From NCBI GenBank assembly GCA_963765495.1, contig CAVXWP010000008.1, positions 384,001-448,000 on the forward strand: a stretch of DNA of 64,000 nt, written 5' to 3'. The notes under the pieces were generated by a model. That model made no database searches. It worked only from the letters and a program-made list of their open reading frames with translations, and had not been told where the DNA came from. The DNA is from Blastocatellia bacterium. Lineage in GTDB: Bacteria; Acidobacteriota; Blastocatellia; UBA7656. The first letter of the stretch is position 1. Each line of letters starts with the position of its first letter. The position numbers and the translations under genes were made by a program. This document shows, in pieces, positions 6,324 to 55,504 of the stretch.

Positions 6324-6422
6324 TCCTTTTTCTCCCTTTTCTAATTACACCTATATACATTTCGTTATCAGACTCGCATCGCTCTTTATCCACGCTCGGG
6401 GCCGGGAACAGAAAAACGGATG

Positions 6423-8829: not shown

Positions 8830-8854
8830 TATCGCTCCTCCATCATTATTGCAA

Positions 8855-14627: not shown

Positions 14628-14643
14628 AGCGAATCCTCTAAAA

Positions 14644-16656
14644 TCAAAGCAGGTGGCGTCCGAGGTAGGTAGCGTAAAGCCTGCAACGTGGCCTCGCGTC
14701 GTTTGATGAGGCCCCCGTCATCAGCCCGGCACTCCTCAATCTGTAAAAACTCTCATCATCAGGCGAGGGCTTCCCGCGAAGCAGTTCCCGCACAACATCG
14801 CAAAGCTCTTCATCCTGAGCAAGAAGCACGAGAAAACGTCGCAGGTGATCGCCAAACGGCCCTTCGTCACGGTCCGCGACAGCCTCAAATTGCGCGAGCC
14901 CAATCCCTTCGTTTACAAGCTCGTAAAGACCTCGCCTCACAAGGTAAGGCTGCCCGCCTACAAGTCCGTGAAAACGCGATACCTCATCCCCACTCCCGAG
15001 AGGTGAACCATACCGATCATTCAGGTCGGCGATCTGCTCCCTAGTAAAATCTTCGATCACAAGCCTTGTCCCCACATTGAAGGGGGATTGATTCAAATCG
15101 GTGATGAAAAGATGAGCCTCCGTCGCATAGGATATGGCAAGCGTAAGACGCTGCCACGGGCCTGTTGGGTCAAGCGATCTCTCGTTATGCCAGGACCGGA
15201 ACAACCCGAATACCTCGCTGCCGTAATCGGTTGTGAAAAGTCGGTCCACCTCATCCAATCCCCAGACTATATGCTCGGGGATTTTATTTAGCACTTCTCT
15301 TCTGATGTATCGCTCGAAATTGATGCTTGGGCCTCGGCGGGTGTTCCACACATCCTCGGGCGAGACATCGAGGTCAAGCTGATCTTCGACCATCTCTGCA
15401 AGCGTCAGAAAGAATGATTCAACAGACTCCATGTGCTCGGCGTTAAACCGCTGGAAATCGGTCAGGACTATCTTCGCTCCTTCCTTTCGCGCCTGCTGAA
15501 GACCTCGTGCCAGCAGAGAGGTTTTCCCCATCTGTCGTGCCCCTTTTACCAGCACTATAGAATCGTGACGGGCGATGGCTGAACAGAAGTCATCGTCGGT
15601 CTCTCTGACGATATAGAACTCCGAATCGAGCGGGACCGCGCCCCCGATAGATTCGAGCCGCTGCCGCTTGCGCTCGGCGACGGGTGGATGACGAAGGCTG
15701 TTTATCAGTTCGGAAACCATCCGTTCAGTATCTTCCGGGCCTTCCCACAGCGCGTATTGCAGGGGCGCGAGTATGCTCCCTATAGGATCTGAAATCGGCC
15801 CTTCATACCCAACCCTTATTGGCAGCAACCTCGGCTTGCCATGCCTTTTTTGTGCTTCGTCGTGAGCTATCTGGATTTCATAGGCCACCATTTCACTCAC
15901 CATAGAAGCAGGAGAAAGCAAGGGAATAACAGCCTCGGAATTGCGAACCTGCTGCTCGATCTCCTTCGCCCATTCGACCCCGATTGACATGTGACGGTCG
16001 ATGAACACATTGAACCCCTCTTCTGATAACCTCACTTCAAGCTGTTGGAGCAAATCCTCATCGGGCTTCGCATTTCGCTTATACAATAGTGCAATCTTCA
16101 TAGCGTCAGTCTCGACAGCTGCTGCGCTACCCTGAGATGCAGATGCCACCACAGACTCGGAAGGCACTGCGGCAACAGGGGCTCGTGCGATTGGTGCTGG
16201 TGGGGGCTCGGCCTCCCTCTCCATCGCCGCTTTTACGCGTTCGACGATCTTCACCAGCGCCACATTCATCTGTGAGGGGCTCAAACTGTCGAGAGGTTCA
16301 GTGGGGTTGTTTGCGGCCTGATAATTTCCTATTTCGGTCTCGTTATAAAGCGACGCGCTGACTGCAATCCACAATATCGTCAAGCCTTCATTTTCAGCGG
16401 CCTGCAAAAGAGGCAACAACTCTTCATTTGCAATAAAATCGGAAGCAAGGAAATTCGGGCTTACAAGCAGGATGGCCACCTTTGCCGATGCGAGCGCGTT
16501 TGTTATCGTATCTTTCCACTTCGCCCCGGAAAGGATTCGGGTGTCATCCCAGACCGATATACTGCTTTTGCGTTCGAGCGGTTTGAGATGGATTTGAAGT
16601 CGATCCAACCATTCCCTGTCACTATGACTGTAGCTGATGAAGACCTGATTTCGCAT
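14644..16656 (-). CDS. TIR - Pro/Ala linker - TIR - AAA-like (AAA_35) NTPase
   Basis: TIR1 VFISYSHSD...[17 protein letters not shown]; TIR2 FNVFID...[15 protein letters not shown]; Walker A GARQMGKT, Walker B LDEVD, SPFNVG, GGQPYL. Confidence 0.9.
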
Positions 16657-25811: not shown

Positions 25812-26095
25812 AAATGAAGAGGTGGGAACAGACCGCACATACCATGTTTTACAAGTACAGACAGTCGGTTCTATCCGAACTCGCCCGGCACGGGGTCTCT
25901 CCAAAACCGAGCACGCCTCCTGAATTCGTACGAGAGTTTGTCAATGACCTATATGTATACGAGATTCGCGCTTTGCGGAACCGGATGCGTTCCGGGGCCA
26001 TAGCAAAAACCGAATACGCGAGCCGGGTAACAGAGTTGAGGCGGCGCTATCCTGTGCTTTCATTATCTCTCAACCACTGGATCGAATCCGATTAA
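25808..26095 (+). CDS. Small hypothetical helical protein
   Basis: Coupled to the previous ORF; protein-like composition (ELARHGV.P...[18 protein letters not shown]). Confidence 0.65.
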
Positions 26096-27636
26096 GCCCA
26101 GAAATTTCTGTCAAGCGTGCGGTATTGGATTGCCTCGCTGACGTGCTCTGATTCTATGGCTGGCTTTCCCTCAAGATCGGCAAGCGTTCGGCTGACTTTC
26201 AGGATGCGGTCATAGGCGCGGGCCGAAAGGCCCAGTCGGGTGATCACATTCTCAAGCAATGACTTTGATTCCGAATCTATCGAGCAGTATTTTCTGATCA
26301 GCCTCGGTGTCATCTGTGCATTGCAAAAAAGGCCCTCGCCCCGCAGTCTCTCGAGTTGAATTTGTCGTGTCCTTACCACCCTTTGTCGAATCTCATCCGA
26401 AGACTCGCTCGGCGTCTCGCTTGATAGTTCTTTGAATTTTACCGCCGGAACATCTACATGAATATCGATTCGGTCGAGAAGAGGACCCGAGATTTTTGAG
26501 ATGTATCGTTGTATCTGCATCGGAGTACATTTGCACTCTCTGGTATGGTCGTTGAAATGGCCGCATGGACAGGGATTCATAGCCGCTGCGAGCATGAAAC
26601 GCGAGGGAAATGTAAGTGAGAGCGCCGCCCGGCTGATGGTTACACGTCCGTCTTCGAGAGGCTGGCGGAGCACTTCCAAAACATTGCGCTCAAATTCGGG
26701 CAGTTCGTCCAGGAACAACAACCCGTTATGCGCAAGCGATACCTCGCCGGGTCGCGGGATGCTTCCCCCTCCAATCAACCCGGCATCGGAAATCGTGTGG
26801 TGGGGTGCGCGAAAAGGCCGTGTGGTCACAAGCCCTTTTTTTTCTGTGAGCCCGGCGACGGAATGAATCTTTGTGCATTCGATGGCCTCTTCAAATTCGA
26901 GGGGCGGCAGGATGGTTGGAATCCGCCTCGCTAGCATCGTCTTCCCGGAACCGGGCGGCCCGATCATCATAATGTTGTGACCGCCCGCGGTCGAAACCTC
27001 TATCGCTCGCTTTGCGTGAAGTTGACCACGCACCTCCTTGAAATCGACTGTATACTGATCCGGGTTTGCGAGCATCGAGTTTGTCTCGACCAGGACCGGC
27101 GTTGAAGTAACTTCACCATTTATGAACTGGGCTACCTGTTTGAGCGCAGAAAGCGGGTAGACATCAAGCCCGGCTACAACCGCTGCCTCTTGCGCATTCT
27201 CTTCGGGGAGGAGCAACCTCCTGACGCCCGATTCACGCGCCGCAACGGCTATGGGTAGCGCTCCCTTGACAGGTCGGACTCGCCCGTCAAGCGACAGTTC
27301 ACCGACTATCATAGTGTCATTCAATTCTTCGCAGCGCAGGTCGCCGTTTGCGCCGAGTATCCCAACGGCGATGGGGAGATCAAAACTCGATCCCTCTTTC
27401 TTTATGTCGGCGGGGGCCAGATTGACGGTCACGCGATGGATGGGAAAGTAGAAACCGCAGTTATTTATTGCGGCTCTTATTCGCTCGCGGCTCTCGCGCA
27501 CAGCCGCATCGGGAAGCCCTACCATTGTAAATGCGGAACCAGTGCTGTCGCCTGAGCGCGGAGTCAGGTCTACTTCTACGTCTACGATAAAAGCGTCAAT
27601 CCCAAAAACGGCAGAGCTCAACGTCCTGAAAAGCAT
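26092..27636 (-). CDS. comM: ComM/YifB Mg-chelatase-related AAA+ ATPase (competence helicase)
   Basis: [70 protein letters not shown]. Confidence 0.93.
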
Positions 27637-27729
27637 TCCGGGTCTCCAGGGCACACCTATTGTGCAAATGAATTTTACCCGGGGGAACATGCCTTTGCGG
27701 CTGAGTCCGCCTGAGATACTAGACCCAAA

Positions 27730-29945: not shown

Positions 29946-32117
29946 TTACAGATTCAAGGAACGGGCTTTTTCCTCTATTGCCTCGTATAACTGCGATTTC
30001 TCACTTTCGCTCACGGCCTGGCGGTATGAGGTGAGCAGGTCTTTTATCGAAATAAGCTCTTTATATAATCCGGCATTTTCAATAGGCGGGGTCAGATATG
30101 AAATCAGTTCGCCGTATGACCGCCGTTTGGCGATTGTTCCCTCCGAGGGATTGTTTACGCTGTAAATGTATATGTTCGGCATCTCGCCGATCAGCCGATC
30201 AGGCCAGCACCGCGATGATAGACCAACTTGCTTGCCGGGCATAAATTCCGTAGCTCCGTGTGTCCCTACGTGGATCAGCGCATCCGCGCGAAATATCTTT
30301 TCAATGTATGTGTAAAGCCCCATAAAGGCGTGGTGGGGCGCTCCGCTTTCGGCGGCAAGCAATCGCATCGGATCGCCTTCATACCCAAACGTAGGCTGGA
30401 CCCCTATAAAGATGTTTCCCAATCTCAGGCCAGGGATCAATATCTCTCGCCCGTTGGAGTTTATCATCCCCGGCGGACGCCCCCATTCATCTTCAATCTC
30501 CGAGACATAAGGGCAAAAGGATCGGTATTCGTCTACGCTCATTCGATATGCAATGTTGGCGACCGATCCAAAATCCGATGAGTTACCATCAAGCAACAAA
30601 CCGCGCAAATGGTCGGGGCTATCGGGAATTTCAAGATCGTAACCTTCAACCTTTAACCGCTTAAGTATCTCAAAGAGGCTCCTGAATACATCCAGGTCGG
30701 CTGCGGTTCCTATGTTTCCTTTGTTTGGCGGGAAGCAAAACAGGATGTATGCGAGCCTCAAATCTTTTCTTTCCGCAATCCGCAGATGATTCCATCGCGC
30801 CAGTCTCCGAGCGATCCTTGCGCACCTGTCTTCAATGGGCTCGGGTTGAATGCCGCTTTCTGTAATACCGCCAAAGACAAACCCTTCGGTCGCTCCGTCT
30901 ATTTCTGGAATCGCAACCTGCATCGCCGTTTGCACGGGGTTGAGTCCCAATCTGCTTGCCTCCCAGCTTTCAACCGTTTGAACATCGAGCGACACCATCG
31001 ACCGATAAGGCAAATTGAATTCCTTAAAGAATTCAACCGCAGCCGATGAATCGTTCATAGCCGGCCCCCCGACAAAACTGAAGCCCGTGAGCGAGAGTAT
31101 TTCACTTACACGCGGGCTCGGTTTTTCACTCCCCCCACGATCAAGGAAGAATTCGCGGCACGCTTCCCGGTTGTCCATAAAGGTAGAGATTGCAGGGATT
31201 ATGGAAAGCCCCTCTGCCTCGATTGCCCGCATCAAGCCGTCGTAATGCAGCCGCGACCCGCTGACAATTTGCGGCCTCATCAGCAATAAACCGAGAGTCT
31301 TCTCCGGGTCCAGTCGTCTACCTTTTACCTGCTGATACCATCCCCTGTACTCTTCGAAGGTTTCAAACAGCCCATCGGCATCCGGGTGATAAATTGCTAC
31401 TGTTGGAGCACGTTCGAACGCTCCCGGTTCGATTACTTCCTTCCCGTCAGGTGAATAATGCTTGACGGCATAAAGCAGCATTGACCGTATGTTTCCGGGT
31501 GTCGGTTGCAGGAAATAACAGAACAGATTCAGATAGTGCTTGATGTCTTTGAGTTTGCCCGCGCCGGGGACAAATTTAAGTATCGCGGGCAATCTGTTTA
31601 CGAGCTTTAGATATGCCCCGGCGTTGCGGGGTGCGGCGTGCCCGTTTTGTTTGCCGCCGTTTGAGGAGGCTGATTTTGTGTTCGCCCCCTTTACCTGTTC
31701 TGCCATCCACGAGCCAATTCTCTTCACGAGATTCCGGCTCGATTCAACATCCCCTGTCTTACTCCCGCTCGCCCGAGATTTCATCAGGCTCGCGAAATCA
31801 AGCCTCCCCATTCGCGTCCGCCGCATCAGTTCGGGCATACAATTGAAGGCGATGACGGTCCTGGATGCATTACTCATCTGGTCAAGGATTTCACCTATCC
31901 GCAGAGCGTTTTCGCCTTCTGTAACATGTATGATGAAGATGATTTCAGACCCGATTAAATCTCTTTCCGCCCCCTGCCATTCATCTTCCGTGAGCGGCAG
32001 CCCACAATTATGAGCCGCTACTGTGAGGCCAAGCTCGTACTGACGGTTGATGTCCTGCTCGGCCTGTCTTAGTGGGACAAGCAGACTGGACCCGACATAA
32101 AGGACGGTTATTTTCAA
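29946..32117 (-). CDS. Mg-chelatase H (BchH/ChlH)-like subunit, N-terminal half
   Basis: FNCMPELMRRTRMG, LTGFSFVGGPA, MQVAIPEIDGA, FCFPPNKGNIGTAA, GVQPTFGYEGDPMRLL, HVGTHGATEFMPGKQ, NNPSEGTIAKRR, ISYLTPP; TTG start overlaps the upstream TGA. Confidence 0.88.
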   Translation of the reverse strand: MKITVLYVGSSLLVPLRQAEQDINRQYELGLTVAAHNCGLPLTEDEWQGAERDLIGSEIIFIIHVTEGENALRIGEILDQMSNASRTVIAFNCMPELMRRTRMGRLDFASLMKSRASGSKTGDVESSRNLVKRIGSWMAEQVKGANTKSASSNGGKQNGHAAPRNAGAYLKLVNRLPAILKFVPGAGKLKDIKHYLNLFCYFLQPTPGNIRSMLLYAVKHYSPDGKEVIEPGAFERAPTVAIYHPDADGLFETFEEYRGWYQQVKGRRLDPEKTLGLLLMRPQIVSGSRLHYDGLMRAIEAEGLSIIPAISTFMDNREACREFFLDRGGSEKPSPRVSEILSLTGFSFVGGPAMNDSSAAVEFFKEFNLPYRSMVSLDVQTVESWEASRLGLNPVQTAMQVAIPEIDGATEGFVFGGITESGIQPEPIEDRCARIARRLARWNHLRIAERKDLRLAYILFCFPPNKGNIGTAADLDVFRSLFEILKRLKVEGYDLEIPDSPDHLRGLLLDGNSSDFGSVANIAYRMSVDEYRSFCPYVSEIEDEWGRPPGMINSNGREILIPGLRLGNIFIGVQPTFGYEGDPMRLLAAESGAPHHAFMGLYTYIEKIFRADALIHVGTHGATEFMPGKQVGLSSRCWPDRLIGEMPNIYIYSVNNPSEGTIAKRRSYGELISYLTPPIENAGLYKELISIKDLLTSYRQAVSESEKSQLYEAIEEKARSLNL

Positions 32118-33865
32118 CCGAGCGCCCCCTCTAATTGATCTTCCAAATTTGCAAAGGCATCGCGGAGTCTGTCGAGCACATTTTGATCGGCAGCCCAGAG
32201 ACCGCGACCCGATGCCTCAAGCAAACGACCTACGAGCGTTCGCGTCGAATGCGGGTTCAGCGTCCGCAATCGTTCGAGCATCGCTTCATCCATCACGTAG
32301 GTTTCGGCCACCCTGTCGTATATCCACCCTTCCACTGCATCTGTTGTCGCCGACCATCCAAATGTGTTTGCCAACTGATGTTCGATTTCAGCCACCCCGC
32401 TAAATCCGTGCTTTAACATCCCTTCATACCACTTCGGGTTTAGAGCCTTGGTCCGCGTCTCAAGCTTGACCGTCTCTTCAAGCGACCTTATTTTCACCCC
32501 CGGCGAAAGCGTGTCTGAAAGGTAGATTCGGGGACGTGCGCCCGCGTGCCGTTCGACCGCTTTTGAGACTCCACCCAGATATTCAAAATAGTGGTCCACA
32601 TCTGTGATCCCCACTTCGGTCGTGTCGATGTTTTGATAGGTAACCTCTACCCTTGAGAGCGCCTTCTCAAGCAGTTGGCGGGCCTGGTTTCCTTCAAAGG
32701 TACGGCCTCTGGAATCGCGCCCATACGCAAAGCATTTGCGAGTTACAAACAGATCGCCCAGTTCCGCGCTGTCTTCCCACTGGCTGTCAAGCACCATGAA
32801 GTTTACGTTGGTGCCATAGTTGCCCGCAGCGTTTGAAAATACCCGAACAACCGCTTCGTCAAATGTGCAATCATTCTCGGCGCGATACTGCTCAACGTGC
32901 AGCTTTACAAAATTCTGATCCGACGGCTCGTCAAGAACGGCCACCCGTCTTACAGCGCGATCAAGCAAAGCCATGGTGGTCCCGAAGAGATCACGGAATA
33001 TTCCCGATACGGTCATCACTATGTCGATGCGGGGCCGTCCCAGTCGCTCAAGAGGGATTATCTCTACATCGGTTGCACGGTTCAGGTTGTCTCGTCGAGG
33101 CTCGACGCCAAGAAGCCAGAGCGCCTGCGCCACCGCTTCGCCCTCGGTCTTGATATTGTCTATTCCCCAGAGCACCATCGCTATAGTTTCAGGAAGCCGC
33201 CCCATCTCGTTTTGCAGGCGTTCCAGAAACGCCCGAGCGATTGGCTCTGCCCTGTGAATCGCGCCTGTCGATGGAACCAGGTAGGGGTTGACAGCATGCG
33301 TGTTGCGGCCCGTAGGCAATATCGAAGGGTTCTGAATTATATCGGCTCCTGGTCCCGGCTCGATGTATTCAGATCTAAGCGCGCGCATAAGCTGGTCTAC
33401 TTCTGAATTCCGTTCGAGATTGGCGCGGATGTCACACAGAACTCTGAAGACTTTCGAGGATTCTTCGGTCAAAACTCCTGCTCTATCCTCAAGATACTCG
33501 ACCGCCTTCTTAGAAGCTCCGTCTCCGGGCTGGGATAGAAAAATCTCAATCGAGTCTTCGAGTAAGGAATCTACTCGTTCTCGCTCCGCCATCCGTGTTT
33601 CCGAGGTGCTGCTCTCTTTTAACAGAGTTGCGTATGGTGGCAGGCTCAGTCCTTCGGCAATCAGGTCTGCCAGGGAACGGAGGCCGAGTTCGGGGCGGTC
33701 AAATGAACTGACCACCTTGAATAAACCGGCGACCTCACGATTGTCGGGAGGAAGGCCAAAGACGTGTAGCCCGGTTGGTATCAACCTCTGCTCGATCTCG
33801 AGCACACGCTCGTAAAGGTCGAGCACGCGGCTGTCTCTTTCATCGCTGCTCAGGTTATCCGCCAT
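32114..33865 (-). CDS. Mg-chelatase H (BchH/ChlH)-like subunit, C-terminal half
   Basis: EIEQRLIPTGLHVFG, PGPGADIIQNPSILPTGRN, ETIAMVLWGIDNIKTEGE, LGRPRID, SGIFRDLF, RVFSNAAGNYG, TDVDHYFEYLG, LNPKWYEGML. Confidence 0.88.
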   Translation of the reverse strand: MADNLSSDERDSRVLDLYERVLEIEQRLIPTGLHVFGLPPDNREVAGLFKVVSSFDRPELGLRSLADLIAEGLSLPPYATLLKESSTSETRMAERERVDSLLEDSIEIFLSQPGDGASKKAVEYLEDRAGVLTEESSKVFRVLCDIRANLERNSEVDQLMRALRSEYIEPGPGADIIQNPSILPTGRNTHAVNPYLVPSTGAIHRAEPIARAFLERLQNEMGRLPETIAMVLWGIDNIKTEGEAVAQALWLLGVEPRRDNLNRATDVEIIPLERLGRPRIDIVMTVSGIFRDLFGTTMALLDRAVRRVAVLDEPSDQNFVKLHVEQYRAENDCTFDEAVVRVFSNAAGNYGTNVNFMVLDSQWEDSAELGDLFVTRKCFAYGRDSRGRTFEGNQARQLLEKALSRVEVTYQNIDTTEVGITDVDHYFEYLGGVSKAVERHAGARPRIYLSDTLSPGVKIRSLEETVKLETRTKALNPKWYEGMLKHGFSGVAEIEHQLANTFGWSATTDAVEGWIYDRVAETYVMDEAMLERLRTLNPHSTRTLVGRLLEASGRGLWAADQNVLDRLRDAFANLEDQLEGALG

Positions 33866-33873
33866 TTCTAATT

Positions 33874-35820
33874 TCAGCCCCCTGATTCTCCTCTCACTTG
33901 TTTCACTCGGAGGGCTTTGGCCTCACTTGAGACAGCCTCATATATCGAGGCCGCGTCGGGTCGAGTGAGATAGATGTAGCGTGCTCCGATCAAATTGGCA
34001 AGCGCGCGAGCTTCGCCAACTGATGTGTATTTCGAGCGCGTGTCTACTACTACGCGATCAATCCCTTCCCTGGCCAAAAGAGCGCCGGTCTGTTTCAGTT
34101 CTTCGTTGATTGTTTCTTTCCGCTCGGCCATCGCCTCTACCGCGCTTTCTCGAAATAGAGTATTAGCCCGGCCATCGGTAAACAATACCAGCATAGCCTG
34201 TGCCTTATCCTGTGCTCGCGCAACCCTCGCTATATCAATTGCTCGCGCGAGCGCCGCCGCAATCGGTGTAGCGCCCCCGGATGGTATAGCATCGACCAGC
34301 CGTTTGGCCAGTTCCACGCTCCGGGTGGGAGGAAGCAGGACATCTGCCCTCTTGCCCCTGAAGCTTATCAGAGCGACGCGGTCGCGATGCAGATAGGCCG
34401 ACTGCAATAATCTCGTCAACGCCCCTTTAGCCTGCGCCATTCGGTTTGCAGCCATGCTGCCGCTTGCGTCTACCGCGAAGATAAAGAGCAAACCCGATTT
34501 TCGTTTGAACTGTTTGTATCGCAAATCATCGGTTGTCACCTTCAGGCGGGGGTTGTCTGTATTTTGGCCCGAAGCCGAGCGCCCGGCCCGCGCGGCCCGC
34601 TCCAATTGAAACGGAGCCGAGGCTCTTATAGTAGCGTCAACGGCTATACAACTAGCGCGATCAGATTTTTCAGTGCTCCTAACGTAGCGGCCTCTGTTCG
34701 AACTCCGTGACAGAGAGCGTTTCCCGGCAGCGGCTCGGTTATTACGCTTTTGATCGAACGGCAGAAAGTCATCCGGCAAGCGGGAATCCAGAGCCTGAAT
34801 TATCAATTCTCCGGCGGGTGATGGGCAGTTATTGGTCGAGGTGTCATCAGTGGCTTGTCCATCATCAACCGTTTTTTCCGGATCATCAGCAGGCGTGTCT
34901 GAACCTTGCTCTTCGGGTGCAGGAATAAGAGTGGCGCGAGGCAATAGCGTCGTCTCGATTGCAAATATGAGATCTTTTTCGGTTAGATGTAGTCGCCTTT
35001 CGTAAGCGGCGTTTGCTCTGGCCGCACATAGAGCAAAGAGGTCGGCTTGATTCCCTTCTACCCCGAGCATCACAGCGGCCTCACTGAGTTGCCTGATCTC
35101 ATCAATGGTAATTTCAACTCTCGGCAGCCATTCTCTTGCCTCTTCTATAGTCCAATTCATTTCCGCTGTATCAAGCTCGTAATCTTCAATAAATGAGCCG
35201 GGATCGTCCCGAAACTGAGTAGCTCGATTCATTATTTCCAAACGCGCTTCAATTGATCCGGCAGACTCGGCATCAATCAAAAGCCCGACGCGCTCTCGCA
35301 GCAATCGCGCCGGCTCACCCTCATCGCGGTCATAGGTTCCAATAAATAAGAAATTGGCCGGAAATGTCTTGCTCAACCCTTCACGCTCGGTGCGGAGACG
35401 GCCCGATTCGAGCGCCGATGCAAGATGACACACAATGATCGCATCAATCAGATTTACGTGATTGGCGAAGAGGAGTCCGCCGTCTGCCTGTGTCAGGAGA
35501 CCGGACAGAAATTTACGCTCTCCCGCGACAAGAGTCCGGCTAAAGTCTATCCCCCCGATCAAACGGTCTTCTGTGGAATTAATCGGAAGCTCTAGGAAGG
35601 GGGCAACGAATCTACGGAGCCCTCGGATCAACGTGCTCTTGCCCGTCCCGGGGCCGGATTGAATAAGCGCCCCCTTTAAACGGGGCTCGATCAGTGGCAA
35701 CAGGATTGCCCGCTTTAACAGGTCGAGACCTACAATTGCCGCGAAAGGGTAATCCGACGGCACACGATGTCTTTCCATTCTCGAACCTGAATCACCAGAT
35801 GGGTCAGAGTTTACCAACAA
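33874..35820 (-). CDS. Chelatase medium subunit ChlD/BchD (degenerate AAA+ - acidic linker - vWA)
   Basis: YPFAAIVG, GPGTGKS, TEDRLIGG, degenerate Walker B (FANHVN), acidic/Pro linker, IAVDATIRA, MIDAS VDASGSM, GGATP, LFTDGRAN. Confidence 0.88.
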   Translation of the reverse strand: MLVNSDPSGDSGSRMERHRVPSDYPFAAIVGLDLLKRAILLPLIEPRLKGALIQSGPGTGKSTLIRGLRRFVAPFLELPINSTEDRLIGGIDFSRTLVAGERKFLSGLLTQADGGLLFANHVNLIDAIIVCHLASALESGRLRTEREGLSKTFPANFLFIGTYDRDEGEPARLLRERVGLLIDAESAGSIEARLEIMNRATQFRDDPGSFIEDYELDTAEMNWTIEEAREWLPRVEITIDEIRQLSEAAVMLGVEGNQADLFALCAARANAAYERRLHLTEKDLIFAIETTLLPRATLIPAPEEQGSDTPADDPEKTVDDGQATDDTSTNNCPSPAGELIIQALDSRLPDDFLPFDQKRNNRAAAGKRSLSRSSNRGRYVRSTEKSDRASCIAVDATIRASAPFQLERAARAGRSASGQNTDNPRLKVTTDDLRYKQFKRKSGLLFIFAVDASGSMAANRMAQAKGALTRLLQSAYLHRDRVALISFRGKRADVLLPPTRSVELAKRLVDAIPSGGATPIAAALARAIDIARVARAQDKAQAMLVLFTDGRANTLFRESAVEAMAERKETINEELKQTGALLAREGIDRVVVDTRSKYTSVGEARALANLIGARYIYLTRPDAASIYEAVSSEAKALRVKQVRGESGG

Positions 35821-35868
35821 CCTGTTACTCCTGTTCGCTGTTCAAAAAAAAGAGATGGATAAAGCCCC

Positions 35869-36993
35869 TCACCGAAAAGAGACGACGCGAGCACCTGAAA
35901 CCGAAGCCGGGAAAATCTCATCCAAAACCTGTTGAATCCTGACGCCTGAATCAATCCGCTCAAGTGGGTCTTTTCGCAACCTGTGCTGCAATGACATTAC
36001 AGCCACTCTCTTTACATCCGAAGCAACCGCATCCTCTCTGCCCTCGAAGGCAGCAAGCGCCCGCGCGGTTCGCGCTATAGTCAATTCTCCGCGATGCCCG
36101 TCAATCTCGAGTGCCAGACACAGCCGGGCGATTGATTTAAGCAATGCCTGCTCAAGCCTGACTTTGTAATGCGTTTTTTTGGCGCGGACCAGTCGCCTTC
36201 GCAGACGGTTTTGCTCTGCCCTTTGCTCTGCTATAAACGCTTCCGGGTTGCGCTCGAAAGACTCTCTTCGTCTCACGATTTCAACGCGCTCGTCAAGATC
36301 AGTGATCGTTTTGATCTCTGTAAACAATCCGAAGCGGTCAAGCAACTGAGGTCTCAATTCCCCCTCTTCGGGATTACCTGAGCCTACAAGCACAAACCTC
36401 GCAGGATGGGTGATCGATATGCCCTCGCGCTCGACAACATTCCGGCCACTCGCCGCCGAATCGAGCAGGATGTCTACGAGGTGGTCGTCAAGCAGGTTTA
36501 CTTCATCAATGTAAAGAAAGCCCCGGTTAGCGCGGGCCAGCAACCCCGGCTCGAAAGCCTTCACCCCTTCAACCAGGGCGCGTTCTATGTCGAGCGATCC
36601 GCAAACGCGATCCTCGGTAGCTCCAAGCGGCAGATCGACTACCGGCACCTCGCCTCGTTCAACAGGGAGCCTGGATTTCTTTTTTAATCTGTCGGCACAA
36701 GCCAGGCAGAGTTCGCCGATTCGTTCGGGATCGCACCCAAATACGCACCCTCTCACTTTGCTGATCCCGGGGAGGAGGTCTGCAAGACCGCGCACCGCCG
36801 TAGACTTGCCCGTCCCGCGATGACCCATAATGATCACACCACCGATGTGAGGATCGATTATGGTCAATAGAAGCGCAAGCTTCATCTCTTCCTGGCCCAC
36901 AAGAGCGGTGAAAGGGTATACCGGGCGGTCGCCCGTACTGCTACGCTTCGATGTGCTGGAAACCGGAGGTTGACTCCCCGAAACTTTTCGCAT
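35869..36993 (-). CDS. bchI: Chelatase small ATPase subunit ChlI/BchI
   Basis: YPFTALVGQEEMKLAL, GHRGTGKST, LPLGATEDRVCG, FEPGLLARANRG, YIDEVNLL, GNPEEGELRPQLLDRFG. Confidence 0.92.
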   Translation of the reverse strand: MRKVSGSQPPVSSTSKRSSTGDRPVYPFTALVGQEEMKLALLLTIIDPHIGGVIIMGHRGTGKSTAVRGLADLLPGISKVRGCVFGCDPERIGELCLACADRLKKKSRLPVERGEVPVVDLPLGATEDRVCGSLDIERALVEGVKAFEPGLLARANRGFLYIDEVNLLDDHLVDILLDSAASGRNVVEREGISITHPARFVLVGSGNPEEGELRPQLLDRFGLFTEIKTITDLDERVEIVRRRESFERNPEAFIAEQRAEQNRLRRRLVRAKKTHYKVRLEQALLKSIARLCLALEIDGHRGELTIARTARALAAFEGREDAVASDVKRVAVMSLQHRLRKDPLERIDSGVRIQQVLDEIFPASVSGARVVSFR

Positions 36994-37042: not shown

Positions 37043-37072
37043 AATATAAGGATTGTGGTTTCACAGAGTCAA
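37043..37072 (-). promoter_or_regulatory. Putative sigma70 promoter of the chelatase operon
   Basis: TTGACT-18 bp-TATATT on the minus strand, 49 bp upstream of the chlI/bchI ATG. Confidence 0.5.
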
Positions 37073-37269: not shown

Positions 37270-37824
37270 TCAATTCGCTACGGTTAAAGGGTCTCCGGTC
37301 TGGTGGTCCTGAATCTGGAATTTCAGGAAATCGTGGATTGCGCTTAAGGCCTCCGAATTCGATGTCGAGATCCGCACGCGCCCGCCTCTTTCTGTCTCTT
37401 CGAATGTATATGCGATTTCTGATGCGAGCCGCTTCATCGTAGGAACACCGGGCGGAACCTGTGAATGGATAAGCATGGGCATTTCGAAATCGCCTTTGGC
37501 AAAGGCTCGCGCGATTATAGCCAGATGCTCTCTGATCTGATCGCGGGTCGTTGTGTCATTTGAATCGTTGGTTTCGACCTGTATATAGCCTCCGTCTCCG
37601 GTCATGCGGAAGTGATGCGTTGCGGCTTCCTGAGAAAACCCCATCACGTGATCTCCTCTCTTATTCACCTCCGACAGATGATTATGATCACCCCCTGTAG
37701 CCTCTTTCTCCTTCTCCATGTGCTGCTTATGCATCGGACAGGTAGCGGCTTTCTCCTGAGCGACACCCACAGTCCCACAGGCAACCAGCAGAACGATAAC
37801 CTGTATTGCCAATCGGTTTCTCAT
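37270..37824 (-). CDS. Exported His/Met-rich hypothetical protein (putative metal-binding)
   Basis: Signal-peptide-like N-terminus, CPMHKQHM, DHNH, MGFSQEAATHHF, IREHL, LIHS, AIHDFL.FQI.DH. Confidence 0.75.
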   Translation of the reverse strand: MRNRLAIQVIVLLVACGTVGVAQEKAATCPMHKQHMEKEKEATGGDHNHLSEVNKRGDHVMGFSQEAATHHFRMTGDGGYIQVETNDSNDTTTRDQIREHLAIIARAFAKGDFEMPMLIHSQVPPGVPTMKRLASEIAYTFEETERGGRVRISTSNSEALSAIHDFLKFQIQDHQTGDPLTVAN

Positions 37825-38321
37825 TTCCTTTTACCTCTTTTCTGATTTAATCCATGCGATGCAAGCGAAGGACGCGCGCTTTTTGTACCCGGTTCGTTTG
37901 ATGCAAGGGCTTCCAACAGCCCGGCTCTTGTATCAGGCGGCGTATCCGAAAGTCTCTGCTGCCAGTCCGCAAGAAGACCGTGCAACTCATTCCTGAAATC
38001 GGAAAGCTCTTTTAGCCTCTCTTCAATCTCTTGAAGTTTGGTCTGAGCCAGTGAAAAGACATTCCGGCAGGGTGCGTCTCCACGGTCCCGAACTTTGAGG
38101 ATTTGCGAAAGCTCCTCTAGCGTAAAGCCGATTGCAATCGCTCGCCTGACGAGCCGGACGCGTTCGAGAGTTTCGGGCGGATACTCCCTGTACCCGTTCC
38201 TTGATCGGTGGGGCGCGGGAAGAACTCCTTTACGTTCATAGTGGCGCAAGGTATCCGTGCTCACGCCAGCCAGCCGTGCCAGTTCACCTGATCTCAGTTT
38301 TCCGTTAAGCGATCTGTCCAT
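37821..38321 (-). CDS. MerR-family transcriptional regulator
   Basis: SGELARLAGVSTDTLRHYERKG, NGYREY, GFTLEE, APC; start moved to ATG 38321, downstream of the promoter. Confidence 0.92.
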   Translation of the reverse strand: MDRSLNGKLRSGELARLAGVSTDTLRHYERKGVLPAPHRSRNGYREYPPETLERVRLVRRAIAIGFTLEELSQILKVRDRGDAPCRNVFSLAQTKLQEIEERLKELSDFRNELHGLLADWQQRLSDTPPDTRAGLLEALASNEPGTKSARPSLASHGLNQKRGKRK

Positions 38322-38333
38322 ACTTGCAGACGG

Positions 38334-38365
38334 ATTATAAACCCCGGAACGAATTCCAGGGTCAA
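38334..38365 (-). promoter_or_regulatory. MerR-type long-spacer promoter with operator dyad
   Basis: TTGACC-20 bp-TATAAT with dyad ACCCTGGAA-TTCG-TTCCGGGGT; A8 tract just upstream of the -35. Confidence 0.85.
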
Positions 38366-38444
38366 GCACTTTTTTTTGAGCAAAGCTCCGAGACTCTTAC
38401 GAACGGGTGGTATGAGTGGTCAGCCTGCTCGCGTTCCCACTCGA

Positions 38445-46017: not shown

Positions 46018-46959
46018 TCAGCTTTCAATCGCCCTCACAATCAAGAGCGTCATATCATCTTCAAGTTCTTTGCCCGACCAGCTACTGACTGCGTCAAGCA
46101 CAAGCCTCTGGATTGCAGCAAGCGGCTTTTTCGCATGGGCTTCGATCAAGGCCGCAAGCCTCTGTTCCCCGAATTCATCTCCGATTGCCGATGTCGCCTC
46201 CGTTATGCCGTCAGAGTATAACACCACGATGTCTCCCGGCAGCATTTCAACCGTCCCGGTCTCGAATTGCGCTTCCGGGAACATACCAAGCGGCATGCCC
46301 CCTTTATCCAGTTGCTGGCCGCGACACGAACCCGCAAGGATGGGCAAGAGGTGCCCGGCATTTATGTAGGAGAGCCGTCGCCGGGAAGGGTCGAACTCGG
46401 CATAGAAGAACGTCGCGAACTTTGAATCATCAGTCACCTGATGAAGGTGACGATTCAGCCGCGAGCAGACTTCACAAGGCGTCTGAGATGATTGAGCCAG
46501 CGTGCGCAGAACCGCCTGTAGGTTGGCCATGATTATCGCCGCCGATATTCCTTTTCCGCTTATGTCGGCGATGGCAAAGATAAGCCTGCCGTCGGGCAAT
46601 TGCATCACATCATAATAATCCCCGCTTATCCCTCGGGCAGGGATGCAGATGGCTGAAAACTCAAGCCCTTCGCTTGGCAAATGTCTGGGAAAGAGCGCCC
46701 TCTGCACCTCCCTCGCAAAATTCAACTCTGCTTCCTTCCGCGCAAGCTGGTGACGGCTCGCCTGGAGTTCCAGCCTCACTCGATAGAGCGATGCAAGAAG
46801 AACAGCCGCCGCCGTCGTGCCGCCAAATGTCAGCCCCCACGTAATCAGCACCGATTGTTGAAGAAGATTCCGCCCCAGAAAAAGGAGCAGGCCCGCGCCC
46901 AGCAGAAAGCCGATCAAATAAACTCTGTCTCTATTCTCTTTTACCAGGGAGTTTTCCAT
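46018..46959 (-). CDS. Membrane-anchored PP2C/SpoIIE (RsbU-like) phosphatase
   Basis: Two TMs, coiled coil, AREVQ, ISGDYYD, ADISGKG, YSDGITEA, EDDMT. Confidence 0.9.
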   Translation of the reverse strand: MENSLVKENRDRVYLIGFLLGAGLLLFLGRNLLQQSVLITWGLTFGGTTAAAVLLASLYRVRLELQASRHQLARKEAELNFAREVQRALFPRHLPSEGLEFSAICIPARGISGDYYDVMQLPDGRLIFAIADISGKGISAAIIMANLQAVLRTLAQSSQTPCEVCSRLNRHLHQVTDDSKFATFFYAEFDPSRRRLSYINAGHLLPILAGSCRGQQLDKGGMPLGMFPEAQFETGTVEMLPGDIVVLYSDGITEATSAIGDEFGEQRLAALIEAHAKKPLAAIQRLVLDAVSSWSGKELEDDMTLLIVRAIES

Positions 46960-46974
46960 AACCGTAGATTCGGG

Positions 46975-49347
46975 CTAAAACCTTCGCTTCTCTTCATCCA
47001 ACACCTGCGCTACGAGTTCAAACTCTTCTCTTAGCCGCTTGATGAGGGATACTGCTTCGGGTCCTACAGTGATCGAGTGTTCATCTTCAAGGGCTTCGCA
47101 AATCTCCTTCATTCGCCCGGCCCCAAGTGTCAGGCAACTGCCCTTTAGCGCGTGGGCCGCCTGTTTTATAGTCTTCCCATCCCGGTCAGCAAGCGCGCTC
47201 TCAAGAGTCGCTATCCGTTTTGGCGCGTCCGCAAGAAAAATGTTTAGCAACTCGATCACAAGTCCACGGTTGCCTGCGCCTGCAAACTTTGAAAATTCAT
47301 CCAGGACGGCAAGATCAACCGCCTGCTCTTTTGCCGTCCCTTTGATTGCTTGATCGGGTCTCTCTTGAGGTTTGTCCGCCACAGACGCACCCCATCGGCC
47401 AAGCACCCGCATCAAGTCTGCGGGCCGTATAGGTTTGCTGATGTAGTCATCCATGCCCGCTTCAAGACACCTCTCCCGATCACCCTGCATAGCGTTTGCC
47501 GTCATCGCTATTATCGGGATATGGCCTAAATCGCCTTCACGGCTTCGAATTTCAGCCGTAGCTTCATAACCATCCATCACAGGCATCTGACAATCCATCA
47601 AGATTAGATCAAAGGTTTCATTCTCAAACGCACCAAGCGCATCCGAGCCGTTTGACGCGGCGCGGACGCTGTGGCCAAGTTTCTGAAGTTGCACAAGCGC
47701 GATCTGCTGGTTGACCGGATTATCTTCGACAAGAAGGATGCGCGCGGGTCGTGAATTCGCGCTCTCAATGTAGGCGGAGACGGCAGCGGCTGCGCGCTCT
47801 TCCTCAAGTGCCGGGTCAGTGATTGATCGTTCCTCAAACAATACCGTGAACCAGAATGTGGCCCCCTCACCCGGCTTGCTGATGACGCCGATCTCGCCTC
47901 CCATCATCTCGACAAGCTGCTTTGAGATTGCGAGTCCAAGCCCGGTTCCTCCAAACTTGCGAGTCGTGGAAGTGTCCGCCTGAATAAAGGGTTGGAACAA
48001 TCGTTTACAAGCCTCTTCGGAAATCCCTATGCCGGTATCTTTGACCTCAAACCTTATTCGGATTTGAGAATCGAGCGTTTCAGTGGGCTCGACGCGGAGG
48101 ATGATCTCTCCCTTCTGGGTGAATTTTATGGCGTTTCCCAGCAGATTCATGAGCACCTGCCGCAATCGAGTAGGGTCACCGCCTACGATCATCGGCACGT
48201 CCTCGTGGATCTGCGGCCACATCTCGACCCCTTTTATGTGGGCCTGCTCTCTCAAAAGAGTTATGACGCTTTCAATGGTTTCGCGCAGGTTGAATGTCAC
48301 AGTTTCGAGCGATAGCTTTCCTGCCTCTATCTTTGAAAAATCGAGAATGTCGTTGATTATGGTCAAAAGCGTCTCGGCGCTTGTTTGTGCTGTCTCAGCA
48401 TACTTGCGCTGTTGTTCGTCAAGACCGGTTTCAAGCAATAGGTCGGTCATCCCAATGACGCCGTTCATCGGGGTGCGTATCTCGTGGCTCATCATGGCTA
48501 GAAACCCTGACTTTGCGCGACTCGCTTCGAGCGCGACCTCTCTTGCGGAGATCAAATCTCGTTCAAGGTTCTTTCTCCGTGTAATGTCGCGGACAATCGC
48601 AAGAACCTCTTCGCGCCCGCATCCTGCTATCCTGATTTCATAATCGCGCAACTCATCGCGTCTTGGGAATCGGAATTCGAATAACTCAAGCAGATTACCT
48701 TCAAGCACTCGAACCACACATTCCATTATCTGATCTGAGAGCTCTTCCGGCAGGACAGACGATATATTTTTCCCCACTACCCCCGACAATAAAGAGAGAT
48801 GATCGCCCCCCTTTCTCATTCTGCAATCAAGGATGTTTCCGTCCCTGCTCAATTGCAACATTATGTCCGGGATCGCATCCAACAGGGCGCGGTTACGCGC
48901 TTCGGCCCGGCGAAGCGCTTCTTCGGCGCGGGCGAGTCGCTCATAATCGAGGCTTTTCTCCCTCGCCTTCTGAGCCAGTGGCTGCACCTCTTCGTAATCG
49001 AATCTGAGCGGCTCGATGACAAGTATGTCTTTCCCATCCAGGTAAAGAGCCGACAATTCGATCTGTCTCTCATTGCCTTCTGTATCATTCTCTGCCCACG
49101 CGCCGGATTTTATACGGCCTTCAACCTTTTTCTTCCAGAAAGAATCAGCCTCTTCGAGAAAATATTCCACGAAGTAAAACTTCTCCTGTGGCCTTAATCC
49201 GTGACGGCTGGCACGACTCTCCGGGTAGAGGCGGACAAACCAGTCCGGGATCGCACTGATCGCATTGAAAGAGCCGTCATCATTGCGTTCAAATACAACC
49301 ATGTCGAAGGCGGCCAAAACGTTTTCAAGCTTGGTTTCGTCTGTCAT
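46975..49347 (-). CDS. Soluble hybrid histidine kinase (unknown N-domain - PAS - HisKA - HATPase - REC - HPt)
   Basis: [48 protein letters not shown], HPt AHALKG. Confidence 0.93.
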
Positions 49348-49427
49348 GCTATTTTGAGCTCTAATCATGCCGCAAGAGATCAGTAGTGATGAAAAGTTGT
49401 ATAGGGAAACCTGCTATGACAGCTTGA

Positions 49428-49922
49428 TCATTCGATCATCTTCCCGGCGAGTGCCGTAAAAAGGTCTTCAACACCCTCTCCCGACTTCGCGCTTGTCCGA
49501 ATAACTGACCATCCATTCTGCACCAGATTCTCGATAGAGTCTGAAGGCAGATCCCATTCCTCGTCCAGATCAATCTTGTTGATGGCAAGGATAAACGGGG
49601 CAGTCGCTATTGCCTCGCTTGCCTTCTCTTGAAGCTCCATAGCTTTGTCGAGCGTCCCCCTCCGGGTCGCATCTGCGACGAGCAGATACCCGGATGTCCC
49701 ACGCAGATATGATACTTTCAACTGCGAATACTCATCATCCCCGGCAAGGTCCCATAAGATCAAAGTCACTTCCTTCTGAGAGAGCTGGACCACTTTCTTC
49801 TCAATTTTCACCCCGACTGTCGTATGGTATTTTTCCGAGAAAATGCTCTTTACGTATCGAGCCACAAGGCTCGTCTTTCCAACCCCGGATGCACCTAGCA
49901 TACAGATTTTTTTCTGGAACAA
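49428..49922 (-). CDS. Single-domain Ras/Rab-like small GTPase (Rup type)
   Basis: G1 GASGVGKT, G2 YHTTVGV, G3 WDLAG, G4 NKID, G5 TSAK; TTG start with AAGGAG RBS. Confidence 0.92.
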   Translation of the reverse strand: MFQKKICMLGASGVGKTSLVARYVKSIFSEKYHTTVGVKIEKKVVQLSQKEVTLILWDLAGDDEYSQLKVSYLRGTSGYLLVADATRRGTLDKAMELQEKASEAIATAPFILAINKIDLDEEWDLPSDSIENLVQNGWSVIRTSAKSGEGVEDLFTALAGKMIE

Positions 49923-49934
49923 GGGTTAGCTCCT

Positions 49935-51701
49935 TTAGCGTGAGCCATCGGGTCTGTCCGCAAGGACTACTTTAACCCTGGCTTCCCGACCGTACCGTCT
50001 GTTTTGCGGCTCGGACGACGTTGCTCCATCATTGCCGTCGTCAACGTTGTTTGTATCAATACCCTTTGAGGAGAGCGCCGAGGTCAGGGCCTGAGCGCGG
50101 TCCTGACTAAGTCTCTGGTTTATGGCGTCGGGACCGCTCTTGTCGGTGTTGCCTGTCGTATTGATGCGAAGGCTCTTTCCTATTGAAGGGACTATCGCCT
50201 CAAGCCTTTTTATGTCCGTTATGAGCGCATCAAGTTCGATTTCCTGATCCGAAGGGAGTTCGGCGCTGCCGACAGCGAATTGGATGGCTCGACCCTCGAT
50301 CTGCTCTTTGAGTCTGTTGATCTCTCTCGTTATCCGCTCTCGATCAATCAGGTTGTCGTCTTTGTAGCCGTAAACCGAAGAGAGCACCTGAGAGAGCCTG
50401 CGCGATTCGGCAATCCAAGCTTCGGGGGCATTACCTTCGGCTACGAGGAATCCATCCTCGACCTTTAAGGTTACGGTGGGGGGAGGCTGGAGCAGTTTTG
50501 AAGCCCTCGCAAGAACAAATTCCGGGTTGGATGCCTGAAACGGTTCCCACCTGCTCACAACCTTGTCGGGCTCGACATTCGTCCCGTTTAAGAGAGCTAG
50601 GGGGTCGGCGGCAAGCGGATCTCTAAGCCCCGAGACAAGATGTTTCCCTCCCCGCTTCTCATCAGAAATCAGTATAATGCCGGGCTCGGATTTCAATTTT
50701 GCCAGATAGGCATCCCAGCGCCAGGCATCGCGAAAGTAAAAAAATGCCCAGAGACCGATTGCGAGGATCACCATCGCGGCCAGCACCCAGAAAAACGGGC
50801 TGCTCTTTTTCTCCTCTTCGACTATCGGAGTTTCGAGGCAGGCTTCAAGTCTGGGGCGGCAGGCTTCAAAGGGCTCGGTCTCTCCATCAAACATCTCAAA
50901 TGCATCGCGTTGTTCGACCTGGATGGCATCAAGCGTATCCTGTAACAGGTCCTGAAATCTTCGGGGCGCATTTCCTCGTACAGCCGCTGCGAGCATCGCC
51001 TGTGGTCCCTGCTCCAGCCAGCCCGTAAACTCACCAACCTTGAATTCATCGAGCGATTCGGACTCTCTCGCCCATTTTGAATCGTGGGCGAAATCCTGAA
51101 GCGCCGTAAGAAGCCCCGATAACATCTCAGGGTCCTGATCGCCTTCGGATTCTATCGGTACCTTTTGCAGCAGCAGTCCCGTCTCTCTGTGAATCAACAG
51201 GACGTGCTCTACCTTGTAGCGCATCGTGTGACTCAGGACCACTTCGGCAAATGACTTCCCCGATCTCAGGGCCTCGAGCCGCCATTTCAGTCCTTTGATT
51301 GAAATGCTGTATTCCAGGGTCTTATTCAGTGACTGAACCATCTCGCTGAAGGCGTTAGAGATGGCTTTGCGAATCGCCGGCCCCATGACTGGAAAGATCG
51401 CGTCTACGAGTCTCTGGGGATTCTTTTTTACAGATACAGAGATGGCTTCTTCGACCGAAGGCATAATCGCTCTGGTCAATTTATCATCTCTATCCGTACG
51501 CAATTTGACCGCGTCCGGCAACACGCGGCTCACATCCCGGGCATATTGCACGGGGTCGTCAAGCCTCTGCTGTAGTCTTCTGACCTGATTCAACTCCGGC
51601 CCGATCAGCAGACTGCGAAGCTCATCGAATTCCTCGGAGGCCGAGTCGGGTCTGTCTGCGCCGGTCTCTTCCGGGGAGGCCGGTGCAACTCTCTCAGCCA
51701 T
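49935..51701 (-). CDS. Helical domain - alpha/beta domain - TM - BON-like - OmpA-C-like fusion protein
   Basis: TM FFWVLAAMVILAIGLWAFFYF; C-terminal IQFAVGSAEL...GNTDKSG...NQRLSQDRA (OmpA-like peptidoglycan binding). Start at ATG 51701. Confidence 0.82.
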   Translation of the reverse strand: MAERVAPASPEETGADRPDSASEEFDELRSLLIGPELNQVRRLQQRLDDPVQYARDVSRVLPDAVKLRTDRDDKLTRAIMPSVEEAISVSVKKNPQRLVDAIFPVMGPAIRKAISNAFSEMVQSLNKTLEYSISIKGLKWRLEALRSGKSFAEVVLSHTMRYKVEHVLLIHRETGLLLQKVPIESEGDQDPEMLSGLLTALQDFAHDSKWARESESLDEFKVGEFTGWLEQGPQAMLAAAVRGNAPRRFQDLLQDTLDAIQVEQRDAFEMFDGETEPFEACRPRLEACLETPIVEEEKKSSPFFWVLAAMVILAIGLWAFFYFRDAWRWDAYLAKLKSEPGIILISDEKRGGKHLVSGLRDPLAADPLALLNGTNVEPDKVVSRWEPFQASNPEFVLARASKLLQPPPTVTLKVEDGFLVAEGNAPEAWIAESRRLSQVLSSVYGYKDDNLIDRERITREINRLKEQIEGRAIQFAVGSAELPSDQEIELDALITDIKRLEAIVPSIGKSLRINTTGNTDKSGPDAINQRLSQDRAQALTSALSSKGIDTNNVDDGNDGATSSEPQNRRYGREARVKVVLADRPDGSR

Positions 51702-55355: not shown

Positions 55356-55504
55356 CTCTGATAGTAGGCAGTAGGCAGTAGGCAGTTAAGCTGGAGGCGG
55401 GTACCAACTATTCACATCTATATATTGCATTGCTGAGTTTAGCCCTTTGGCTTTGATCTTGATTATCAGCTTAACTGCCTACTGCCTACTGCCTACTATC
55501 AGAG
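55356..55504. repeat. Perfect 38-bp inverted repeat containing tandem AGTAGGC heptamers
   Basis: CTCTGATAGTAGGCAGTAGGCAGTAGGCAGTTAAGCTG (55356-55393) and its exact reverse complement (55467-55504), 73-nt spacer. Confidence 0.92.

Follow-up and report, generated by a model that had tools for sequence, protein, structure and literature searches.

We analysed a 64,000-nucleotide stretch of DNA from a soil bacterium of the Blastocatellia (contig CAVXWP010000008.1, positions 384,001 to 448,000; hereafter the window) and found that the operon at 29946-36993 on its minus strand is conserved among bacteria that are not phototrophs and genuinely belongs to the Mg-chelatase lineage, and that in it the large subunit H is naturally split into two polypeptides encoded in swapped order. 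A first-pass annotation of the window had recognised a chelatase operon of the BchH/ChlH type at this position, and BchI, BchD and a BchH-type large subunit are indeed encoded there. It had overlooked, however, that H is two open reading frames (ORFs) in swapped order, as it did the breadth of the clade, the haem and cytochrome neighbourhood of the relatives and a lineage which has H but no motor. The reading which we favour, with a probability of roughly 55%, is that of a functional three-component class I chelatase driven by an AAA+ motor, with a split H and a protoporphyrin substrate, which serves a purpose other than chlorophyll synthesis.

The region 29946-36993 is exactly filled by four co-directional ORFs. 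The bchI/chlI gene (35869-36993, minus strand) encodes the AAA+ motor subunit of 374 amino acids (aa), which scored 523.7 bits on model TIGR02030 (cut-off 466.95) and whose translation contains an intact Walker A motif (GHRGTGKST), Walker B motif (FLYIDEVNLL) and arginine-finger region. The bchD/chlD gene (33874-35820, minus strand) encodes the 648-aa bridging subunit, which scored 539.8 bits on TIGR02031 (cut-off 499.55) and matched Pfam VWA_2 and AAA_lid_2. Its AAA+ domain has the Walker A motif SGPGTGKST and a degenerate Walker B, LLFANHVNLI, with NH instead of DE, and its C-terminal VWA domain carries the metal ion-dependent adhesion site (MIDAS) motif DASGSM. The scores of both proteins exceeded equivalog cut-offs, and the earlier description of intact Walker motifs in ChlI, and of a dead Walker B and an intact MIDAS in ChlD, agrees with the translations; the four H motifs which had been quoted are also present, as judged by alignment to ChlH.

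The other two ORFs encode the two halves of a BchH-type porphyrin-binding subunit. The C-terminal half, Hc (32114-33865, minus strand; 583 aa), is encoded first, covers positions 696-1271 of the 1271-position model TIGR02025 and aligns to residues 755-1350 of the Synechocystis ChlH chain, and the N-terminal half, Hn (29946-32117, minus strand; 723 aa), is encoded second, covers positions 1-688 of the same model and consists of the DUF3479 head domain and the first half of the body (Pfam CobN-Mg_chel positions 3-538). The cut lies near the middle of H, at about residue 724-735 of Synechocystis ChlH, and is placed by residue number only because ChlH domain boundaries were not found in PMC6604950. 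Whereas a Mg-chelatase H is one polypeptide of about 1200-1400 aa with its domains in N-to-C order, the natural C-terminus of H here directly precedes its natural N-terminus, and the TTG start of Hn overlaps the TGA stop of Hc by 4 nucleotides (GGTTGA).

Hidden Markov model (HMM) scores place both halves with BchH. Hc and Hn cover complementary stretches of the BchH model TIGR02025 (NCBIfam), on which they scored 664.9 and 698.7 bits (each, taken alone, below its whole-protein cut-off of 829 bits), and scored 341.7 and 244.1 bits on the CobN model TIGR02257, about half the BchH scores. For phylogeny, which had been proposed for the concatenated halves, full-length relatives were cut at alignment boundaries and one tree was built per half. 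The rows comprised the split proteins, 16 of 120 long homologues, 37 of 38 NCBIfam-labelled representatives (the 38 picked from the best 150 of a protein library) and the two large-subunit genes of G160, a genome of a phototroph-like genus of the same class; an atypical 1573-aa CobN-type protein (P0218) and a contig-truncated locus (L035) were left out. The Hc tree comprised 66 rows and 573 columns, and its 11 split rows formed one clade with a support of 100 in the Shimodaira-Hasegawa-like approximate likelihood ratio test, inside a 30-row clade (97) of Chloroflexota, Chlorobi and proteobacterial-type BchH to which the canonical BchH of G160 (1302 aa) also belongs. The Hn tree, of 64 rows and 686 columns, likewise had its nine split rows in one clade (100) inside a 37-row BchH clade (99), and in both trees the CobN-labelled rows were set apart by a branch with a support of 99-100. 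The core BchH clade around the split proteins contains Chloroflexota, Chlorobi, Heliobacteria and the G160 BchH (support 97-99). Both trees came from a quick search and do not resolve relations within the BchH clade; a clade of the split proteins with the G160 BchH was neither shown nor rejected (approximately unbiased test, p-AU 0.39). The HMM scores and the trees of both halves thus support the earlier assignment of H to the Mg-chelatase branch rather than to CobN. A second BchH-like gene of the phototroph-like genus (L038; G160:C2, ORF 5985-9896; 1303 aa) grouped with CobN in both trees.

Among full-length H proteins the nearest, at 44-51% identity, are those of Candidatus Chlorohelix, Chloroflexus, Oscillochloris, Heliobacterium, Chlorobi and the phototroph-like genus of the same class with its 1302-aa BchH. 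The window operon shares with BchH, BchI and BchD of anoxygenic phototrophs the three subunits, the operon logic, the BchH clade, the active-site residues and the equivalog scores of I and D. It differs from them in that H is made as two polypeptides with swapped order, in a host without a chlorophyll pathway or reaction centre, and in that the split clade has replaced a conserved Asp by Asn and one of its sub-lineages has lost I and D. With CobN, CobS and CobT it has in common the superfamily, the architecture and most catalytic residues. NCBI names several relatives 'cobaltochelatase subunit CobN', and passages of PMC9227772 report that ChlI and ChlD serve CobN in some organisms. A cobaltochelatase of aerobic cobalamin synthesis is nevertheless extremely improbable, as both halves fall in a clade separate from CobN, CobN models score about half as high, the host genome has no match to CbiC (CobH) and lacks a corrin pathway, and no cobalamin riboswitch was found in the window (Rfam). 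The first-pass annotation had considered an H within CobN together with a complete cobalamin pathway as the outcome that would overturn its proposal, and neither part of that combination was found.

The host genome comprises 7,298,947 bases in 17 contigs and is 97.94% complete with 0.19% contamination, and the only matches to the CobN/Mg-chelatase family in it are Hc and Hn. The best BchM score in this genome was 68.4 bits (cut-off 158.9), the best BchL score was 41.9 bits (cut-off 345.15), with no BchL/NifH-like protein found, and BchG reached 35.1 bits (cut-off 212.3). Searches of the same genome gave no match for AcsF, for type II reaction centres (Photo_RC) or for type I reaction centres (PsaA/PsaB), so that the set expected of a host which makes (bacterio)chlorophyll, namely BchM, BchL/ChlL or a POR, BchG and a reaction centre, was not found in it. 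The earlier remark that the window itself has no photosynthesis or cobalamin gene stands, since none was seen among the 42 window ORFs scanned with Pfam, 38 of them outside the operon. Because the genome is without BchM, BchL, BchG, AcsF, a reaction centre and CbiC, we regard the operon as belonging neither to a cryptic phototroph nor to a B12 chelatase.

Among 81 genomes of the class BchM exceeded its cut-off only in family f4 (8 of 12), a family whose canonical BchH of 1302-1306 aa occurs in a genus with two-contig genomes of 3.7 Mb, and in none of 15 genomes of f1, 17 of f3 and three of f5. A cryptic phototroph, which the first-pass annotation had offered as one branch of its proposal, or a recent, decaying relic of phototrophy could still draw on the nesting of the split clade among the BchH proteins of phototrophs, on the unrejected grouping with the canonical BchH of the same class and on the BchM-bearing f4 genomes. 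Against the missing pathway and the absence of BchM from f1, f3 and f5, however, we regard this as very improbable. Nor is decay indicated, since the split genes are intact, are conserved in 61 species-level assemblies and have ratios of nonsynonymous to synonymous substitution (dN/dS) of about 0.06-0.18.

The split form is widespread among relatives. A survey of 401 genomes of the phylum, the host included, gave an Hc match in 30, one of which (G049, unpublished) is CobN-like, and split forms of high identity (57-73%) were found in the same class only, in families f1 (2/2), f3 (7/27) and f5 (1/1) of this phylum sample. A protein collection contained 3719 Hc-related proteins of 320-1021 aa; the best 120 of these have lengths of 570-609 aa throughout and, the window's own protein aside, identities of 70-75%, and are named 'Mg chelatase H' by the Joint Genome Institute (JGI) and 'CobN [Blastocatellia / Acidobacteriota]' by NCBI. 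From species-representative genomes 80 loci were returned. In 61 of them Hc is 59-80% identical, and these are all metagenome-assembled genomes, mostly labelled Blastocatellia, Pyrinomonadaceae or Acidobacteriota; the other 19 (41-49% identity; Chloroflexus, cyanobacteria and Proteobacteria) all have the canonical order. Hn lies downstream of Hc in 55 of the 61 split-type loci, and of the remaining six, three (L043, L044, L046) have no Hn in 4.7-10 kilobases (kb) of downstream sequence and three are too short to tell.

The Hc/Hn junction could be measured in 44 loci, where it ranged from overlaps to a distance of 1.5 kb; it was at or below zero in 12, seven of these being 4-nucleotide overlaps, and in one locus (L031) the two ORFs are in frame with one TGA between them. 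In the genome G221 Hc and Hn lie on separate contigs, so the halves can be unlinked. A fused, circularly permuted H was looked for and rejected, none of the 118 proteins with both halves (among the best 150 library representatives) having Hc first and none of the 44 junctions being fused. Relics of a tandem duplication were likewise rejected, as no further Hc or Hn fragments were found by tblastn at E < 0.4 in the whole host genome. In G221 a long perfect inverted repeat, resembling a repetitive extragenic palindromic hairpin, lies right after Hc, where Hn is missing (L027:10594-10720), and its Hn stands on the other contig next to a YifB gene. A library representative of 618 aa (P0129), 43-44% identical to Hc, covers the C-terminal half only (its residues 49-615) and may reflect either a separate splitting event in a different lineage or a gene call that was cut short. 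The literature searched, which takes in few subscription journals, described no split or permuted BchH and no BchH in non-phototrophic Blastocatellia, and neither was mentioned in passages of PMC10156173, PMC10576062 and PMC6664022.

To judge the active site we used the residues H621, E625, Y651, Y653, E660 and H1174, which passages of PMC13297055 give as essential in Synechocystis ChlH; numbering in the solved ChlH chain is native +20. Their equivalents are H620, E624, Y650, Y652 and E659 in Hn and H425 in Hc. The five Hn residues are invariant in 52 of 52 Hn proteins and the Hc histidine in 61 of 61 Hc proteins, so that the catalytic residues H621, E625, E660 and H1174 all have their counterparts. 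At the H1174 position 29 of 32 BchH rows have His and none of the 15 CobN rows does, an observation which depends on the alignment. The 32 BchH rows have 198 columns with at least 90% conservation; the split clade keeps 169 of these, and at six it is fixed for a different residue.

A model of the complex of Hn (residues 335-723) with Hc (residues 1-583) reached a score of 0.92, the best of three controls scoring 0.00; of 157 solved complexes 116 attained the same mark, as did two of 215 mismatched pairs. At least 97% of contacts agreed between runs, and the partner predicted local distance difference test (pLDDT) value was at least 90. Since single-chain ChlH has been solved, the pass may reflect only likeness to a known fold and not binding of these particular copies.

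In the reading we favour, Hc and Hn would be translated as separate polypeptides, probably coupled in the window via their overlapping stop and start codons, and would reassemble into the usual ChlH-like cage with an active site shared between the chains, the equivalents of H621, E625 and E660 being supplied by Hn and that of H1174 by Hc. In the host, the ATPase ring of BchI, together with the MIDAS domain of BchD, would drive a divalent metal into protoporphyrin IX from the haem branch. Ancestry makes Mg the default guess for this metal, and the product would feed neither chlorophyll nor cobalamin synthesis. The host genome contains ferrochelatase (PF00762) and lacks ChdC, which fits a haem route via protoporphyrin IX that would supply the substrate; the coproporphyrin-dependent haem route was rejected for the host as no ChdC was found. 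A HemB gene lies in the window at 55499-56464. The earlier suggestion of a chelatase repurposed for another metal or tetrapyrrole in a non-phototroph is compatible with all of these findings.

The arrangement of the motor varies among the relatives. In the window, I and D adjoin H and are intact, and separate I and D genes are found in the window's clade and the basal branches; BchI-type genes (E <= 1e-30) occur in 27 of the 81 class genomes, including 13 of the 15 sampled from the window's own family (f1). Unlike the window with its separate I and D genes, most Pyrinomonadaceae-type loci have a single-gene motor of AAA+, linker and VWA parts, 650-750 aa long, which by a coordinate rule is present in 33 of the 61 loci (for example L050:7975-9981). 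Its N-terminus is a BchI-like AAA+ domain, 61% identical to the window's BchI and with intact Walker motifs, and its C-terminus is a BchD-like linker followed by a VWA/MIDAS domain. Neither I nor D was found in nine loci whose upstream sequence extends for at least 4 kb.

Several observations weigh against the favoured reading, the first of which concern these H-only loci. When 11 genomes were searched (those nine and two others, G386 and G346), BchI/BchD was found elsewhere in one only; in the other 10 no BchI/BchD-type gene was found, the best match to the BchI model being 45.6-59.3 bits (cut-off 466.95). Completeness is known for only two of the 11, G386 (98%) and G346 (97%). The 10 H-only Hc rows are monophyletic (FastTree local SH-like support 100, stem 0.26), and their standing in one clade points to one loss of the motor followed by diversification. 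The H-only halves gave dN/dS values of 0.077-0.144 (six estimates with dS < 1.5; two further estimates had dS > 2.4 and two were undefined because dS was saturated), which indicates purifying selection, and I-D-bearing relatives gave 0.058-0.156 (twelve estimates). H has therefore persisted without a motor in one lineage, and as both halves are under purifying selection there, H has a function independent of the ATP motor, at least in that lineage.

A further objection is that the active-site residues do not identify the metal, because they are mostly superfamily-wide: the H, E, Y and E residues are also present in 14-15 of 15 CobN rows. There is also D193N in Hc, one of the six fixed substitutions: at least 90% of the 32 BchH rows and all 15 CobN rows have Asp at this position, and all 61 split Hc proteins have Asn. 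The position lies two residues past the gun5 alanine, and the change may mean an altered chemistry. Finally, bacteria are not known to use Mg-protoporphyrin for anything but chlorophyll synthesis.

The H-only clade is an argument for supposing that the split H works independently of a motor throughout, as a porphyrin or haem carrier, a sensor, a regulator or an agent of ATP-independent metal exchange or removal in cytochrome or haem homeostasis, with I and D as accessories where present. All active-site residues are intact in this clade under purifying selection. There is also a precedent in HmuS, the haem dechelatase of Bacteroidota, which according to passages of PMC12583661 is a class I large-subunit homologue that acts outside pigment and B12 synthesis without ATP, and is a single membrane-anchored chain with a Met-rich insertion. 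The split H is, however, distant from HmuS in sequence, the two halves scoring 508 and 477 bits against ChlH and 143 and 233 bits against HmuS, and no hmu-type neighbours were found among the window ORFs scanned, so that neither scores nor neighbours place it with HmuS.

Motor-independent action also finds some support in the gene neighbourhood of the relatives. In most Pyrinomonadaceae-type loci the chelatase genes lie between a divergent ccm cluster and a co-directional Rieske/cytochrome b operon. Among the 61 loci the genes upstream on the opposite strand encode CcmA in 22, CcmC in 21, CcmB in 18, CcmE in 17, CcmF in 13, CcmH in seven and a di-haem oxidoreductase in 18, and those downstream on the same strand encode a Rieske protein in 36, cytochrome b in 34, a 368-aa protein resembling the C-terminal part of cytochrome b in 35, a multihaem cytochrome c in 21 and a glutaredoxin-like protein in 35. 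This neighbourhood is confined to related Pyrinomonadaceae-type loci, so the synteny counts as one observation and not as many, and it is seen neither in the window nor in the window's nearest relatives. We take it as a lead towards haem and cytochrome biology and not as a demonstration. Given in addition that I and D are intact in the window and kept in most sampled genomes of its family, we consider it unlikely, though worth keeping in view, that H acts without the motor in general.

Replacement of ferrochelatase by H was ruled out, as PF00762 was found in the host genome and in 16 of the 17 split-H genomes searched. The exception is G291 (locus L036), which is 99% complete and in which I-D, Hc and Hn adjoin genes for Rieske, cytochrome b, UbiA and COX2; it gave no PF00762 match.

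Another explanation retains the ATP-driven machine and supposes that it has been retuned to a different metal (Zn, Co, Ni or Fe) or to a different porphyrin, for example coproporphyrin. Enzymes that would act downstream on a Mg-porphyrin are absent, and the six substitutions fixed at BchH-conserved columns could be read in this sense. They include, besides Hc D193N, Hn T670E (Glu in 44 of 52 Hn proteins); Hc N193 and Hn E670 lie inside the interface ranges of the predicted complex (Hc 185-195 and Hn 670-685), and the two changes may compensate for each other. Directly upstream of the operon lie two genes which could be cited on the same side, for a secreted, His- and Met-rich protein of 184 aa without a Pfam or NCBIfam match (37270-37824, minus strand) and a MerR-family regulator (37821-38369, minus strand; Pfam MerR_1), the two overlapping by ATGA within 37270-38369. 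Both genes are given as context of the operon. The pair also stands upstream of bchI in L027, L042 and L043, giving four loci, and not in other relatives. The MerR protein, however, contains only one Cys and lacks an obvious metal-binding pair, and the great majority of BchH-conserved columns are unchanged, and ferrochelatase is retained in nearly all split-H genomes searched, so that HemH has not been replaced. Such a change of metal or porphyrin is therefore distinctly doubtful.

A sigma-70-like promoter candidate, TTGACT-18-TATATT (37043-37072, minus strand; 10 of 12 positions), lies about 50 nucleotides upstream of bchI. The site which the first-pass annotation had named as the operon's own promoter thus exists, but with five such sites in the region, against 6.6 +/- 2.3 in shuffles, it stays a mere candidate.

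Downstream of the operon the window encodes a GGDEF protein and then YifB/ComM (26092-27690, minus strand), which lies about 2 kb downstream of Hn and is a Mg-chelatase-like AAA+ protein that is functionally unrelated. YifB also follows Hn in L040, in L045 and on contig C90 of G221, which suggests that the synteny is conserved in the family. Two convergent copies of the small RNA Acido-Lenti-1, at 56768-56812 (minus strand) and 56904-56948 (plus strand), scored 44.3 and 37.9 bits (gathering score 37) and lie just upstream of hemB. At 11403-16656 (minus strand) a 670-aa protein with TIR and AAA_35 domains is followed by a 1074-aa WD40 beta-propeller protein, a pair which may act in signalling or defence of the TIR type or of the STAND (signal transduction ATPases with numerous domains) type. 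At 46018-51737 (minus strand) a Ras-like small GTPase of 164 aa adjoins an Hpt-bearing hybrid histidine kinase, a SpoIIE-type phosphatase and an OmpA-like protein of 600 aa.

BchH/ChlH is taken as a marker for chlorophyll synthesis, and genes of the present kind are annotated automatically as either 'Mg chelatase H' or 'CobN'. Here a BchH-clade enzyme whose active site would be spread across two chains is under purifying selection in dozens of soil Acidobacteriota that are not phototrophs, which could caution against reading the presence of bchH, bchI and bchD in metagenomes as a sign of phototrophy. Study of the operon could uncover a new role for metalloporphyrins or a new step in the handling of haem, and could provide a natural two-piece system for dissecting cage opening in ChlH and the docking of BchD. 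Because the relatives' locus stands among ccm and bc-complex genes and one sub-lineage keeps H without a motor, the role under selection may be the handling of porphyrin or haem and not pigment synthesis, and H may be linked to cytochrome biogenesis.

We propose tentatively, as a possibility short of even odds, that the Mg-chelatase lineage has had a second, non-photosynthetic life, in which a split BchH of soil Blastocatellia serves haem homeostasis or the biogenesis of respiratory cytochromes by handling protoporphyrin, haem or a metalloporphyrin, even where it is motorless, and that it perhaps derives from the BchH of an ancestor shared with Chloracidobacterium-type phototrophs. The operon could supply one more data point for the history of phototrophy genes in the class to which Chloracidobacterium belongs, and such a shared BchH ancestry, if true, would have a bearing on the way in which the Acidobacteriota gained or lost phototrophy.

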